Source of the DNA: a virus
Lineage: Duplodnaviria > Heunggongvirae > Uroviricota > Caudoviricetes
DNA length: 4,612 nucleotides
Virus record (IMG/VR): IMGVR_UViG_2693429700_000015
Direction: 5' to 3' (one strand)
Below are positions 1 through 4,612 of this stretch, in pieces. Positions within the stretch are counted from its first letter, which is position 1, and every line of letters starts with the position of its first letter. A model generated the notes under the pieces. That model saw only the letters and a list, made by a program, of their open reading frames with translations. It was not told the origin of the DNA and did not search any database. A program made the translations under genes and the position numbers.

Positions 1-87
1 CTGTGAGTCATATTCATCCTGACTTTCCAGAACCATACGAATCGCCCGCTGACGGACTTCGGGGGAAAAACGAGTATTTTTAGTCAT
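1..87 (-). CDS. IS3-family transposase OrfA, N-terminal part (partial, runs off window start)
   Basis: Reverse-strand translation from the ATG at 87-85 gives [29 protein letters not shown]..., which matches the N-terminal helix-turn-helix region of IS3-family OrfA proteins as I remember them. Not in the ORF track because it is cut by the window edge. Confidence 0.8.
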
Positions 88-141
88 CCTGTTTACCTCT
101 TTCTCAGGGAGTTTAGTCTCCAGGATTTCCGGGGCGGTTCA
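1..141 (-). mobile_element. IS3-family insertion sequence, left end (terminal inverted repeat plus start of orfA); element continues beyond the window start
   Basis: Reverse complement of 88-141 reads TGAACCGCCCCGGAAATCCTGGAGACTAAACTCCCTGAGAAAGAGGTAAACAGG followed by ATG: a TGA-starting terminus typical of IS3-family ends, running straight into a transposase orfA start. From memory this resembles IS629/IS1203-like elements; not verified. The element boundary (TG terminus) is at position 141. Confidence 0.8.
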
Positions 142-576
142 TACGTCAGCAAAATAGCGGAAAAGGCCGGGGACTCTCCAGCCAAGTTCATCACTGAAGT
201 TAATAAGCTGAAATCTCAGTCAGGCGGTGAAATTTACAACACTATTTTTTCTGGAAAGCACATGAAAGAGCTTGATGCTCTTCATGAAGTTCTACAGCAA
301 ACAGCAAGGTCAGACACCGCAAATGTAGTAACTCAGACGGGGCAATTGCAAGCCAACAGGATAAGGACGATTGGCGCAACTGCGACCCTTGGTGTATCAC
401 TGGGACTTGAGGCTGGTTTCGGTGCAATCATGCGCTTGTATGAGTCCAAAGCAGCAAGGAATGCTCTCTTACGTCTGGCAAACACCAAAGCAGGAACGCC
501 AGCCTATGAAAGAGCGTTAAGTAACGCTGCAAATGCCGTCAGGCCGCTGTTTGCTACTGAGGCAACACGGCAGTAA
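142..576 (+). pseudogene. 3' fragment of a gene apparently truncated by the IS insertion; product unknown
   Basis: The reading frame of track ORF 262..576 stays open with no stop codon all the way back to the IS boundary at 142 (40 further codons: [47 protein letters not shown]...). No convincing Shine-Dalgarno precedes the ATG at 262. Consistent with the C-terminal 144 codons of a longer gene whose 5' part was separated by the IS. Product not recognised. Confidence 0.45.
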
Positions 577-600
577 CGTATGGGAAATTGGATTCAATCG

Positions 601-990
601 CTAACATTTTCTTTTTACTTTTCCAACAAAAGCTTTGGTTGAATCCATATTTCCATAACCGGAAATGGTTTTTGACATTAAAACTGTTCCAGTAGGATGT
701 ATTACCCATGAGTCGATAACGCGTTGAGTTTCGCCATTCGCGCCGATTCCTATGATGGAGTTTTTAGACAATTCTTTGTAAGCCATGCCGCCCGCATCTG
801 TCCCAGAATATGTGATGCTGGCATCTTCACCGCTTGTCTTAATGATGAATGTTCCACTAAAACCATCTTCTTCCGGATGGAAATTATTTCGCTCTGAATA
901 GCTTATTCCGCGCATATCTCCAACGACCCAGCACTCTGCTGTAGCCCCAAAAGATATGAATAAGAACATAGCAGCAAGAAATTGCTTCAC
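601..990 (-). CDS. hypothetical secreted/periplasmic protein with Sec-type signal peptide
   Basis: 129-aa ORF with GTG start at 990-988 preceded by a strong Shine-Dalgarno (GGAGG at 1000-996, 5-nt spacer). The N-terminus MKQFLAAMFLFISFGATA-E has a basic residue, a hydrophobic core and an A-x-A cleavage motif. The mature protein has one Cys near its N-terminus and one at the extreme C-terminus. Family not recognised. Confidence 0.6.
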   Translation of the reverse strand: MKQFLAAMFLFISFGATAECWVVGDMRGISYSERNNFHPEEDGFSGTFIIKTSGEDASITYSGTDAGGMAYKELSKNSIIGIGANGETQRVIDSWVIHPTGTVLMSKTISGYGNMDSTKAFVGKVKRKC

Positions 991-1052
991 ACCAACCTCC
1001 TTAGTTTTGAGCAGGATACCAGATGATACTTTATTGGTGGAGTGGTGTGTGA

Positions 1053-1227
1053 AAACGTGTCAACGACAAACCATCCACAACTTGGACGAATGATTTAGCA
1101 AAAAGTGCTATTTTTGGTGTTTGGTGTCATAGAAACGTGAATAGCTTACTTTTCAACATTGCATGAAACTTGCAGGAAATGTGACATTACCTTATAGGTA
1201 ACTTCGGCGAAAATGCAGTAAATGTGA
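1053..1227 (+). repeat. recurring AAANGTG(A) motif, at least 5 copies, in the divergent intergenic region
   Basis: AAACGTG at 1053-1059, AAAAGTG at 1101-1107, AAACGTGA at 1133-1140, AAATGTGA at 1177-1184, AAATGTGA at 1220-1227. The last three are spaced 44 and 43 bp apart. Far more copies than expected by chance for a 6-specified-base motif in about 350 bp. Confidence 0.35.
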
Positions 1228-1364
1228 AACGTAATGGTTTAAACATGTCGCTAAAGTGGTTGTAAGTTAGCCTCCGAAGGATTGCTGATAGCTTTGTTAT
1301 AGTATTAAATGACATTTGACATAGTTGGATACTTAGCTGCGGCTATCAAGATGGAGGTATGTTT

Positions 1365-1808
1365 ATGCTCACTTGTTTTGATGTCGCCGACTACTTCTTG
1401 GCGCATTGCGATGAAGAAAGTGGCGACATTATCTCTAACCTAAAAATTCAGAAGTTGACGTATTATGCCCAAGGGTTTTCTCTGGTTCTTCTGGGTAAGC
1501 CGCTATTTAATGAGAAAATTGAAGCCTGGATGCATGGGCCAGTAGTTCCTGAATTGTATCGTAAATATAGGGACTGTGGTAACGGCGCTTTACCTGCGCC
1601 AGAAAACTTTGACGCTAAAAAATTCAGTGAAGATGAAATTGAATTGCTGGATGAGGTGTATAAAGTTTATGGTCAGTTTTCTGCCTGGAAACTGCGCAAT
1701 ATGACTCACGAAGAGCAGCCATGGAAAGATGCTTACATTGAGGGTGCGGTTAGCCAAGAAATCACACTTGATTCTATGAAAGGTTTTTTCAAAACGTTAA
1801 TTAACTGA
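1365..1808 (+). CDS. Panacea-domain (DUF4065; GepA/SocA-like) protein, putative antitoxin of a PanA/PanT-type module
   Basis: The segment KIQKLTYYAQGFSLVLLGKPLFNEKIEAWMHGPVVPELY matches the conserved core of DUF4065/Panacea proteins as I remember it (KLQKL-Y-AQ ... PLF-E-AW-HGPV). Start chosen at ATG 1365 (GGAGG at 1353-1357, 7-nt spacer) rather than the track ATG at 1359, which is only 1 nt after the Shine-Dalgarno. A TTGACA hexamer lies at 1316-1321 inside a tandem TGACAT-T-TGACAT, about 45 bp upstream. Confidence 0.75.
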   Translation: MLTCFDVADYFLAHCDEESGDIISNLKIQKLTYYAQGFSLVLLGKPLFNEKIEAWMHGPVVPELYRKYRDCGNGALPAPENFDAKKFSEDEIELLDEVYKVYGQFSAWKLRNMTHEEQPWKDAYIEGAVSQEITLDSMKGFFKTLIN

Positions 1809-1813
1809 CGTGT

Positions 1814-2236
1814 ATGTCTAGAGTTAAGGGAAGAATAAAACAGAGGGATAAAGAGAGCTCTGCTACTGTTGGCCTCTCTATCCATCACGAATCTCATGAT
1901 GTAGACAAAAGTCCGCCTGTATTTTCTCTTAGATACCTACAAAAGGGGTATTGCCTAGATTGCTGCCAAAAGCATGAAAAGGCAGCATTTGCAGATAGGC
2001 TGTTCAGGTTAAGTCAGATGTCATGGGATGAGATACGAAAATCTGATAAACACGGGCTTGGGACGGAAAAAATTGCCAGAAACGCGATAAAGGCTCCGAT
2101 TCCTAAGCATGTTACTCAAGATGTGGATTTCATTGCGTTCAGATTTTGCTCTAAGGCACCTATGGTTGGTTATAAGATAGGAGCCACTTTTTATGTCTTA
2201 TGGCTCGACAGGGAGTTCAAGCTATACAAGCACTAA
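1814..2236 (+). CDS. hypothetical protein; candidate toxin partner of the upstream Panacea-domain protein (family not recognised)
   Basis: 140-aa ORF starting 5 nt after the Panacea gene stop (operon arrangement) and ending at a strong terminator. No Shine-Dalgarno at the 1814 ATG, so translation would need coupling; an alternative internal start at ATG 2018 (AGGT 8 nt upstream) would give 73 aa. Basic N-terminus, Cys cluster (CLDCCQKH), C-terminus GYKIGATFYVLWLDREFKLYKH. No family recognised from memory. Confidence 0.5.
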   Translation: MSRVKGRIKQRDKESSATVGLSIHHESHDVDKSPPVFSLRYLQKGYCLDCCQKHEKAAFADRLFRLSQMSWDEIRKSDKHGLGTEKIARNAIKAPIPKHVTQDVDFIAFRFCSKAPMVGYKIGATFYVLWLDREFKLYKH

Positions 2237-2237
2237 T

Positions 2238-2263
2238 AAAACCCACCGTCAGGTGGGTTTTTT
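2238..2263. terminator. bidirectional rho-independent terminator shared by convergent genes
   Basis: AAAACCCACC (2238-2247), loop GTCA, GGTGGGTTTT (2252-2261), T-run to 2263: a GC-rich 7-10 bp stem flanked by an A-run upstream and T-run downstream. It sits between the stop of the + strand ORF (2236) and the stop of the - strand ORF (2280). Confidence 0.75.
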
Positions 2264-2279
2264 GTTGGAGATAAAATGG

Positions 2280-2483
2280 TTAACCAAATCGATCCTTAAA
2301 GCGTCTATCGCTGTTGCGTCTCTCCATTTTACTGTTGCAGTACGGACAAAGATGCTGTTTCTTTCCATCGATAGTCCATGTGAAGTACTTTTTCTTAAAT
2401 CCAGCACCACAGATATCGCAACTTCTTGGTTTAAACATGCTGGCTATGAAGACAAGAACAACAAATCCTATGATCCATTCCAT
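2280..2483 (-). CDS. small membrane-anchored zinc-ribbon protein (67 aa), function unknown
   Basis: N-terminal hydrophobic helix (EWIIGFVVLVFIASMF) followed by CxxC...(17 residues)...CxxC (CDICGAG...CPYCNS) and a basic tail. Ends at the bidirectional terminator. Shine-Dalgarno is weak (ACAGG about 10 nt upstream). Confidence 0.5.
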   Translation of the reverse strand: MEWIIGFVVLVFIASMFKPRSCDICGAGFKKKYFTWTIDGKKQHLCPYCNSKMERRNSDRRFKDRFG

Positions 2484-2624
2484 ATCATGTACCTGTTTTA
2501 ACTTTATTTTTTGTTTTTTAGGGATTAATCAGAAACTTTATCTTGCGATTAAGCAAAGCTACTAGCTAACAAAAGAGTGCGTATACAATCAATCGTTTCA
2601 CATCAACCTCAACAAGGAGAAATC

Positions 2625-2810
2625 ATGACCATAGAAGAACGCCTGAACAACATTGAGTTGAACCAAACCCTGCTTGACCAGCGACTTTCAGATCTTGAGC
2701 TTAAAGATCTTGATGCGCAAATATCAGAAGCAGAAGCCAAGCTCTCCAGCCTAAACCACCGCAAGAAGCAAATCCGCAACAGAATTACTCAGGGACGCGG
2801 AAGCTGTTGA
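2625..2810 (+). CDS. small coiled-coil-like hypothetical protein (61 aa)
   Basis: ATG at 2625 preceded by a strong Shine-Dalgarno AAGGAG (2614-2619, 5-nt spacer). Sequence MTIEERLNNIELNQTLLDQRLSDLELKDLDAQISEAEAKLSSLNHRKKQIRNRI has heptad-like Leu/Ile spacing. A TACAAT -10-like hexamer lies at 2584-2589. The track ORF start at 2577 (GTG) lacks a Shine-Dalgarno and would contain this promoter-like element. Confidence 0.5.
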   Translation: MTIEERLNNIELNQTLLDQRLSDLELKDLDAQISEAEAKLSSLNHRKKQIRNRITQGRGSC

Positions 2811-2994
2811 GGTGGGATGCTAGGTCTCTATCGTTAAAATCAAGGCTGCTAATCATTTCATTGTAAATGGCGTTTTTATCTTCCATTGGCAGTCTTGAGT
2901 AAACCAGACACAGAGCATATTTCAGGGAGTTTAGCTCTTTCTCTAGCTCTTCCTTGCTTGACGTTTTTGACTTAATAAACTGTTTTTTATTCAT
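2785..2994 (-). CDS. hypothetical protein (69 aa) translationally coupled to mnt
   Basis: Its start ATG (2994-2992) overlaps the mnt stop in an ATGA arrangement, with AAGGA about 6 nt upstream inside the mnt 3' end. Hydrophilic, no transmembrane segment, family not recognised. Its 3' end overlaps the convergent 2625..2810 ORF by 26 nt. Confidence 0.5.
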   Translation of the reverse strand: MNKKQFIKSKTSSKEELEKELNSLKYALCLVYSRLPMEDKNAIYNEMISSLDFNDRDLASHLNSFRVPE

Positions 2995-3239
2995 TTTGCA
3001 TCCTTACCATACATGGTTTTCAGTGTTTCAAGCAGCGCCTCTTTGAATTTGTCAGCTTCTTGCTGAGCAAATGACTCAACTGACTTTGGCGACCTATCTT
3101 CATCAATCGCGGCTTGCAAAATCATGACGATCTCGGAGTTAACAGAGCGACCATTTTTTGATGCTCTGACAGCAAGAGCCTCGCGCAAAGATTCAGGGAT
3201 TCTTACCGTAGTTGGAGAAATTGACACACCCTTTGCCAT
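2991..3239 (-). CDS. mnt: Mnt-like ribbon-helix-helix repressor (immI region)
   Basis: 82 aa. TTVRIPESLREALAVRASKNGRSVNSEIVMILQAAI is an Arc/MetJ-type RHH motif (beta-strand, G-R-S-x-N-S-E helix). Length and C-terminal helix (FKEALLETLKTMYGK) parallel phage P22 Mnt (83 aa, C-terminus ...VFDTLKDLYKK) as I recall it. Transcribed divergently from the arc-ant pair, as in P22 immI. Confidence 0.8.
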   Translation of the reverse strand: MAKGVSISPTTVRIPESLREALAVRASKNGRSVNSEIVMILQAAIDEDRSPKSVESFAQQEADKFKEALLETLKTMYGKDAK

Positions 3240-3259
3240 AGCACACCTTTGGTATTCAA

Positions 3260-3271
3260 TTTGATATCAAA
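3260..3271. promoter_or_regulatory. 12-bp perfect palindrome TTTGATATCAAA in the mnt/arc divergent control region; candidate operator
   Basis: Perfect dyad symmetry, located 21 bp upstream of the mnt start codon in the 114-bp region separating two RHH repressor genes. RHH dimers and tetramers bind symmetric operators. Confidence 0.4.
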
Positions 3272-3288
3272 GTGTATGCAAAAGAAAT

Positions 3289-3317
3289 TTGACTAGATAT
3301 ACTCACTTTGCTATCTT
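3289..3317 (+). promoter_or_regulatory. putative sigma70 promoter for arc-ant (Pant-like)
   Basis: TTGACT (3289-3294), 17-bp spacer, TATCTT (3312-3317), about 35 bp upstream of the arc Shine-Dalgarno GGAGGG (3344-3349). The spacer contains CTAGATATACTCAC, a possible repressor binding region. Hexamer match is moderate. Confidence 0.35.
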
Positions 3318-3353
3318 TTGTATTCGAAAAGAGTCGTTTGTGCGGAGGGTAAC

Positions 3354-3506
3354 ATGGAGAAAGAAATAAGTAAGATTTTGGTAAGGATGCCGCAGTCGTT
3401 AAAGGACGCTATCGGTAGCAGGGCAAAGGAAGAATGCCGGTCGTTTAACTCGGAAGTGATTAAGCGGTTGATAGACAGCCTGAAGAGAGAGGGGATAACG
3501 GTGTGA
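3354..3506 (+). CDS. arc: Arc-like ribbon-helix-helix repressor
   Basis: 50 aa. ILVRMPQSLKDAIGSRAKEECRSFNSEVIKRLIDSLKREG aligns motif-for-motif with P22 Arc (FNLRWPREVLDLVRKVAEENGRSVNSEIYQRVMESFKKEG) as I recall it. Start at ATG 3354 with GGAGGG 4 nt upstream; the track TTG start at 3318 is rejected. Confidence 0.8.
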   Translation: MEKEISKILVRMPQSLKDAIGSRAKEECRSFNSEVIKRLIDSLKREGITV

Positions 3507-3738
3507 TTCGCTTGGATGCAGTAGTCAAAGAGATTGCGATTACCATTTTAAGACCAAATTTTGTTCATGGCGAATCATTTGGCACGAACGAAAAATTGAG
3601 AAGAGAAAGAGTATTCAGTGGCAAGCGCACATTTTCAGAAGTGATGCTTGATGCGGCAAAGAAATCAAAACAGTGAAGCCCCAACTGCGGTAACAGTCAG
3701 GGCTTCGGTTGTCGGTAAATTCGTGGAGAAAAACCAAC

Positions 3739-4533
3739 ATGAATAGTATAGCAATTTTAGAAGCAGTGAACACCTCTTACGTACCATTCAACGGTCAGCA
3801 AATTATCACCGCCATGGCTGCCGGAGTTGCATATGTTGCGATGAAGCCAATCGTTGAAAACCTTGGAATGAGCTGGTCAACGCAGCAAACAAAACTCATG
3901 AAGCAGATTAGCAAATTCAACTGTGTTCATATGAACATGGTTGCCGCTGATGGGAAGCTTCGTAAGCTACTCTGCCTTCCTTTGAAGAAGTTAAATGGAT
4001 GGCTGTTCAGCATCAACCCCGAGAAAGTTCGAGCTGACATCCGCGATAAACTGATTCAGTACCAGGAAGAATGCTTTACTGTACTGCATGACTACTGGAC
4101 AAAGGGAAAGGCAGAAAATGCACGTAAGAAAACATCTGTTGATGACAGGACTCCGCTTCGTGATGCTGTAAATATGCTAGTCAGCAAAAAGCATCTAATG
4201 TACCCAGAAGCTTATGCAATGATTCATCAGCGTTTCAATGTGGAAAGTATTGAAGAGCTTGATGCATCTCAGATACCGCAAGCCGTAGAGTACATCCACA
4301 GGGTAGTGCTTGAAGGTGAGTTCATCGGCAAACAAGAGAAGAAGCCCAACGGGCTTTCCGCAAAAGAAACAGACATCCTTGTATGGCTGTGGGATTATGC
4401 CAACCGCTCACAGGCATTATTCCGCGAACTGTATCCGGCGCTGAAACAAATTCAATCGAACTATTCCGGCAGATGTCATGACTGCGGTTATGAGTTCTCC
4501 CGTATTATCTGTATTAGCTCAGACCTGATCTGA
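3739..4533 (+). CDS. ant: phage antirepressor (P22 Ant-like, N-terminal P22_AR_N-type domain)
   Basis: [21 protein letters not shown]...[12 protein letters not shown]...[27 protein letters not shown]...[16 protein letters not shown] matches the conserved N-terminal domain of P22-type antirepressors as I remember it. It lies downstream of arc in the same orientation, as in immI. Start taken as ATG 3739 (GGAG at 3725-3728) rather than the track TTG at 3709. Confidence 0.75.
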
Positions 4534-4568
4534 CAGTTACCGGTTATTTATACAGGTATCTGTCAGAT
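4528..4568. other. imperfect inverted repeat immediately after ant stop; possible terminator or regulatory hairpin
   Basis: ATCTGACAGTTACC (4528-4541) and GGTATCTGTCAGAT (4555-4568) are reverse complements at 13 of 14 positions, separated by a 13-nt AT-rich spacer. A second small hairpin CAGAT-TAC-ATCTG (4564-4576) follows, and a T-run sits at 4584-4589. The T-run is not directly adjacent to the stem, so terminator function is uncertain. Confidence 0.3.
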
Positions 4569-4612
4569 TACATCTGGCTTAAATTTTTCTCGGCCCAGAT
4601 GCGCTTTCCATC

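Follow-up and report, generated by a model that had tools for sequence, protein, structure and literature searches.

Does the insertion sequence (IS) at the edge of this prophage fragment split a gene, and if so, is that insertion what inactivated the phage? The window, meaning the whole stretch of 4612 bp analyzed here, opens with an IS end that abuts a reading frame. The first-pass annotation took this frame for the 3' part of a gene cut off from its 5' part by an IS3-family element, and suggested that the prophage is probably defective if the interrupted gene encodes a structural or ejection protein. The window is the entire contig CYAS01000125.1 of the Escherichia coli assembly GCA_001283645.1, in reverse complement (L010), and its proteins are deposited under Escherichia coli as CTT85840.1, CTT85855.1 and CTT85949.1. 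The assembly broke at both ends of the contig because both fall within repeated elements. The features needed for the argument are as follows.

1-141, minus strand: left (IRL) end of an IS1203/IS629-type IS3-family element, 100% identical to annotated IS1203 copies
1-87, minus strand: start of the transposase gene orfA (29 aa, by translation), reading away from the gp16 fragment
129-141, minus strand: core of the terminal inverted repeat, TGAACCGCCCCGG; the identical 13 bases open both ends of the reference element
142-144, plus strand: TAC, right-hand copy of the target-site duplication and also codon Tyr497; intact alleles have a single TAC
142-576, plus strand: codons 497-640 and the TAA stop of a 640-codon gene for a P22-gp16-family DNA-ejection (DNA transfer) protein, left as a 3' fragment
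262-576, plus strand: public CDS CTT85840.1, 'DNA injection protein', 104 aa, starting at internal Met537
4510-4612: end of an IS481-family element (TGTATTAGCTCAG... or TGTATTAGCTCAGACC...), with the transposase C-terminus ...DGKRIWAEKNLSQM and its stop on the minus strand

The first 141 bases are one end of IS1203, which belongs to the IS3 family as an isoform of IS629. They are identical (141/141) to copies annotated as 'IS3-like element IS1203 family' transposase, and align without a mismatch to the final 141 bp of the reference IS1203, a complete 1310-bp copy that interrupts espY2 in an O157:H7 genome (L014, 432-1741). The stretch contains the terminal inverted repeat, the leader and the first 29 orfA codons; the rest is cut off by the contig end. 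At window 141 the element ends in ...GGCGGTTCA (in a longer reading, ...CCGGGGCGGTTCA). IS3-family termini are imperfect repeats running from 5'-TG to CA-3', and TGAACCGCCCCGG is found accordingly at 129-141 on the minus strand; in the reference element the same motif stands at both ends, flanked by a 3-bp duplication, CTT. Since the identical ...GGCGGTTCA terminus adjoins unrelated DNA in three other sequences (L012, L001 and L014), position 141 is the true end of the element, as the first-pass annotation had it. The orfA start lies ~55 bp inside IRL. Its match to positions 1-24 of the HTH_Tnp_1 profile is weak (E=0.0011) and falls under the Pfam cutoff because just 29 aa are present. Elements of this family have overlapping orfA (HTH) and orfB (DDE) frames linked by a -1 programmed frameshift. 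Such a frameshift is annotated in the CDS of the reference IS1203; of the window's own copy, the first 29 orfA codons are assembled.

On the other side of position 141, the alignment with intact gp16 alleles sets in precisely at base 142 (...GCAGCT/TACGTCAGC, with the slash marking the junction), which corresponds to codon Tyr497. The 144 codons at 142-573 have 77.8% identity to the last 144 codons of P22 gene 16 (tblastn, E=1e-61); that gene occupies 11484-13313 of P22 and encodes 609 aa, and the match spans 12879-13310. Closer relatives are the 'DNA transfer / injection protein' of Salmonella phage vB_SemP_Emek (91.7% identical) and 640-aa 'DNA transfer protein' alleles (>99%). The fragment also matches PHROG 770, 'DNA transfer protein', at profile positions 508-663 of 668 (E=2e-56). 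Uninterrupted 640-aa gp16 alleles, at 97-99.8% DNA identity, are found in four E. coli prophages (L002-L005), in which the gene order gp7, gp20, gp16 is as in P22; one of them, L003, serves below as the intact reference allele for the rebuilt gene. For the 104-aa call, a precomputed match to PF26808 is available. The Pfam scan does not return PF26808 even for intact 640-aa gp16, and the NCBIfam scan finds no gp16 family, so the gp16 assignment draws on precomputed hits, PHROGs and BLAST.

The position of the fragment agrees with this assignment. In P22, gp16 is the last of the ejection genes gp7-gp20-gp16, and homologues of gp7 and gp20 lie upstream in the intact relatives L003-L005. The fragment sits just upstream of the accessory sieA/immI (mnt-arc-ant) region, and the first-pass annotation was right to place it at the edge of an accessory region. 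Members of the gp16 family have a full length of ~600-640 aa, and codons 497-640 are all that the window holds. Judged by sequence and synteny, 142-576 is best described as a fragment of a gp16-family member and not as a functional one.

A different reading takes 262-576 for a real short gene, with its natural start at the ATG at 262 and the IS merely lying upstream; the first-pass annotation had named a natural start there as the observation that would count against a split gene. The public record does annotate a 104-aa CDS at exactly these coordinates, and a weak GGAA motif precedes the ATG. Frame 1, however, is open from base 7 through the TAA at 574-576, its first in-frame ATG, GTG or TTG is the ATG at 262, and this codon is an internal one, Met537, of the intact 640-aa protein (P22 gene 16 encodes 609 aa). 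The intact homologues that were retrieved have ~496 more codons upstream, similarity runs through 142-261, and the short forms retrieved are fragments or frameshifted copies. We therefore give the short-gene reading next to no credence; because its ATG is Met537 of the intact protein, the 104-aa CTT85840.1 is a gene-caller artefact, and the public 'DNA injection protein' is flagged here as mis-annotated. Expression of the fragment is not to be expected either: there is no start before Met537, a consensus scan of window 1-1400 finds no sigma-70-like promoter, and the IS transposase reads away, so the fragment is presumably a dead pseudogene remnant.

If the IS divided gene 16, then the 5' part should be found next to the other end of the element. 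After a simple insertion that duplicates 3 bp, the upstream frame would be expected to read ...AMRAAY and to meet the TGA of the IS terminus directly thereafter. The corresponding 497-aa N-terminal product is absent from the protein collection, as are variants predicted for other duplication lengths; this is because an older IS at nt 1014 of the gene (discussed below) removes the true start, and the gene caller begins at Met394. What is present is CTT90504.1, a 104-aa protein that runs from Met394 and ends exactly at Tyr497. It is encoded on a single 726-bp contig, CYAS01000190.1, from the same assembly as the window (GCA_001283645.1). This contig (L017) has three parts:

1-124: right (IRR) end of IS1203, ending in ...GGGGCGGTTCA
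125-602: gp16 nt 1014-1491, ending in ...GCGTGCAGCTTAC
603-726: IRR end of IS1203, inverted, beginning with TGAACCGCCCCGGGTTTCC...

Every IS base in the contig is identical to the reference IS1203. The upstream junction, ...GCAGCTTAC/TGAACCGCCCCGGG, is at the other IS end, and the gene 16 sequence that the first-pass annotation expected beyond it is there, covering nt 1014-1491. CTT85840.1 and CTT90504.1 are pieces of one split gene called as separate CDSs.

The two junctions also carry a target-site duplication, which had been proposed as a check with a length of 3-4 bp. The left TAC is at 600-602 of the 726-bp contig (...GCAGCTTAC/TGAACCGCC) and the right TAC at 142-144 of the window (GGCGGTTCA/TACGTCAGC); in terms of the element termini, the left junction reads ...GCAGCTTAC/TGAACC... 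and the right one ...GGTTCA/TACGTCAGC. Taking out one TAC copy restores gene 16. When 125-602 of the upstream contig is joined to window 145-576, the resulting 910 bp differ from the intact L003 gene by 1 base. A duplication of 3-4 bp is reported for IS629 (PMC3271280), and the TAC on both sides has the short length seen in the IS3 family. Since the TAC flanks the element on both sides and the gene continues exactly from one contig to the other, the window junction reads as the product of simple transposition with a 3-bp target-site duplication.

The possibility that the junction is an assembly chimera, with a short-read assembler misjoining the IS end to prophage DNA, needs to be weighed here, given a contig of just 4.6 kb that begins and ends within repeated elements. 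A misjoin is exceedingly unlikely, however, in view of three observations. The independent Logan assembly of run ERR134522 (L011), for which another assembler was used, has the identical 141/142 junction; the element stops at its true terminus; and the reciprocal junction, with the target duplication, is found on another contig.

A more serious alternative is that an IS-mediated deletion or rearrangement produced the boundary at the IS end, such that the DNA on the far side of the element is not the 5' part of gene 16. A precedent is offered by E. coli OkiPb01684, whose genome is complete (NZ_AP042519.1, L001) and in which an IS3-family element lies by a gp16 3' fragment with a truncated coat gene opposite, i.e. 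a deletion. In O157 genomes, moreover, matching duplications are kept at only 21 of 47 IS629 sites (PMC3271280), no upstream virion proteins could be tied to the window's assembly, and the two contigs end inside the repeated IS, with the physical link between them unseen. Even so, we consider this alternative improbable: the complementary junction in the same assembly combines a matching TAC with exact continuity of the gene, neither of which a deletion boundary would predict, and any rearrangement could only postdate a simple insertion. That both contig ends belong to one physical copy, a single 1310-bp element, is something we infer from the contig ends; later recombination between IS1203 copies could have separated the two.

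The preferred reading is that IS1203 very probably transposed into gene 16 of a resident P22-like E. coli prophage, splitting the ejection gene. The 1310-bp element would have inserted between gp16 nt 1488 and 1492, duplicating the target TAC, with IRR facing the 5' part of the gene, IRL at window 141 facing the 3' part and the transposase genes reading away from the 3' fragment. Codons 1-497 would thereby be parted from codons 497-640. The upstream frame would stop immediately at the TGA of the IS terminus, and the downstream 144 codons would be left as a dead remnant without a start codon or promoter of their own.

This was apparently not the first insertion into the gene. At its left end, the 726-bp contig shows IS1203 joined to the gene a second time, at gp16 nt 1014, and the window's genome has a 478-bp stretch of gene 16 enclosed by two IS1203 copies in inverted orientation. 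The nt-1014 junction also closes contigs L006 (from GCA_001285905.1), L009 and L012 (from run SRR31139755), representing at least three other isolates, and in all three contigs gp16 is uninterrupted across nt 1489-1491. Two of them, L006 and L009, match window 142-4509 with 1 differing base in 4368 (99.98% identity). From this distribution we infer that the IS1203 at nt 1014 is the older one and that the window insertion is a later second hit, 475 bp downstream: an ancestor would first have gained IS1203 at nt 1014, and the window lineage would later have gained the inverted copy.

The later insertion appears to be private to the window's isolate, at gp16 nt 1489-1491. The window's junction is absent from 5426 complete E. 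coli genomes (megablast of 1-600), and the 40-bp junction has 0 exact matches in GTDB species-representative genomes, among which the source strain is not included. OkiPb01684 was considered as a carrier of the same junction and rejected, as its IS sits at a different gp16 site. A substitution marks the prophage lineage: Leu565 (TTG, window 346-348) replaces Ser (TCG) and is common to the window, L006 and L009. In the 120 best-scoring gp16 homologues, mostly intact 640-aa alleles, this residue is Ser in 117 and Leu in none (0/120). In comparison with P22 gene 16 and the 640-aa alleles, Ser565Leu is private to the window's lineage.

What lies beyond the older junction was addressed by several searches. 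The N-terminal products predicted for it (339, 353 and 354 aa) are not found in the protein collection, and a homology search with an N-terminal construct for this junction returns no matching fragment. Likewise, gp16 nt 1-1013 and the upstream virion genes are not found in the assembly, by tests that depend on exact matches and are correspondingly weak; no accession from GCA_001283645.1 is listed for exact L003-type virion proteins. The best 120 matches to intact gp16 consist of near-full-length proteins and contig-end partials only, and a search with gp16 residues 339-497 gives only unrelated frameshifted or partial fragments. A deletion at nt 1014 is plausible by analogy, because the OkiPb01684 IS beside a gp16 3' fragment borders a deletion into the coat gene.

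The consequences for the phage follow from what is known about gp16 in P22. The proteins gp7, gp16 and gp20 are needed for delivery of P22 DNA into the host (PMC8402733). Because gp16 is required for this step and gene 16 has been split twice, published P22 genetics would make the prophage defective, with no infectious virions formed. The suggestion that an interrupted ejection gene renders the prophage defective is thus supported, and each check proposed with it came out in its favour. It needs one refinement: sister isolates share the nt-1014 junction without having the insertion at 141, so gene 16 was already split, and the window's insertion is therefore not the inactivating event. Compared with P22 gene 16 and the 640-aa alleles, the window keeps 22% of the gene (144 of 640 codons), without a start codon or promoter.

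A bearing on the downstream genes was also part of the original question. Their order is as in P22: after gene 16 comes a minus-strand ORF at the sieA position, then extra cargo, a Mnt-like gene, Arc and Ant. The cargo block at 601-4509 comprises a presumably secreted protein encoded where P22 has sieA, followed by a SocA/Panacea pair and by mnt, arc and ant. It is best seen as belonging to a remnant that is decaying or domesticated rather than to an inducible phage. Similarity to L006 and L009 ends at 4509, where the IS481-family element begins; this element cuts ant at codon 257 of 300, in contrast to L006 and L009, which have an intact 300-aa Ant. The 4.37-kb block from the partial gp16 to the partial ant is bracketed by two different insertion sequences, and the insertion in ant is a further hit, at the opposite end of the cargo block.

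Within the block, some observations can be made in passing. The minus-strand gene at 601-990 encodes a 129-aa protein with an N-terminal signal-peptide-like segment (MKQFLAAMFLFISFGATA) exactly at the P22 sieA position. It matches PHROG 2651, has no Pfam, NCBIfam or PADLOC match, and might have an unrelated exclusion function. The gene at 1359-1808 encodes a SocA/Panacea-domain protein (PF13274, E=2e-24), followed after 5 bp by a gene for a 140-aa partner (1814-2236) that matches PHROG 8366 and, weakly, both NCBIfam MAG6450 and the PADLOC NsnC profile, the latter in its C-terminal part. The two genes, inserted after gene 16 and ahead of mnt, resemble a toxin-antitoxin or defence module.

One more reading is that the gp16 C-terminus, 104-144 residues long, has been retained because it is made from the ATG at 262, and that it acts as a decoy against ejection by an incoming P22-like phage. 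The P22 changes that escape SieA, G532W and P546S, map within the gp16 region kept here (PMC10461980). If the decoy reading were true, the fragment would act with the neighbouring cargo genes, and the IS hits in gene 16 (at three independent sites in related prophages) would reflect selection and not chance. We regard it as very doubtful and keep to the reading of the fragment as a probable dead remnant.

Set beside known systems, the insertion of IS1203 into this prophage is an event of an already known kind, part of ordinary prophage decay. IS629/IS1203 is reported to be among the most prevalent insertion sequences in E. coli O157:H7 and is a documented driver of prophage and genome diversification; it has a preference for prophages, and in O157 genomes 62% of IS629 copies are in prophages or prophage-like elements (PMC3271280). 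The window resembles the IS629/IS1203/IS3411 isoforms in E. coli prophages in its terminal 141 bp and its termini (TGAACCGCCCCGG...CA), and shares with them the 3-bp duplication and the prophage-gene target, so there is no difference in kind. Knowledge of IS3-family elements and of gp16 is unchanged by the result; its value is as a small worked example in which stepwise, IS-driven prophage decay is rebuilt from short-read contigs.

A close parallel is again OkiPb01684 (L001 4870-6762), in which a 3' fragment of gp16 is likewise bordered by an IS3-family end of the same kind and orientation. Its IS site is 192 bp upstream of the window's site, and beyond the IS there is a truncated coat gene and a deletion of several kb, whereas the window shows a simple insertion with target duplication. 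The OkiPb01684 IS is an independent event in gene 16 that goes together with a deletion, and the prophage there is cut by IS100 and IS1 as well. Another IS1203 left end is found in the assembly of SRR31139755, where L012 1-28 abuts window position 2475, inside a 67-aa zinc-ribbon-like ORF (2280-2483, minus strand). It adds one more independent IS hit to those in this remnant.
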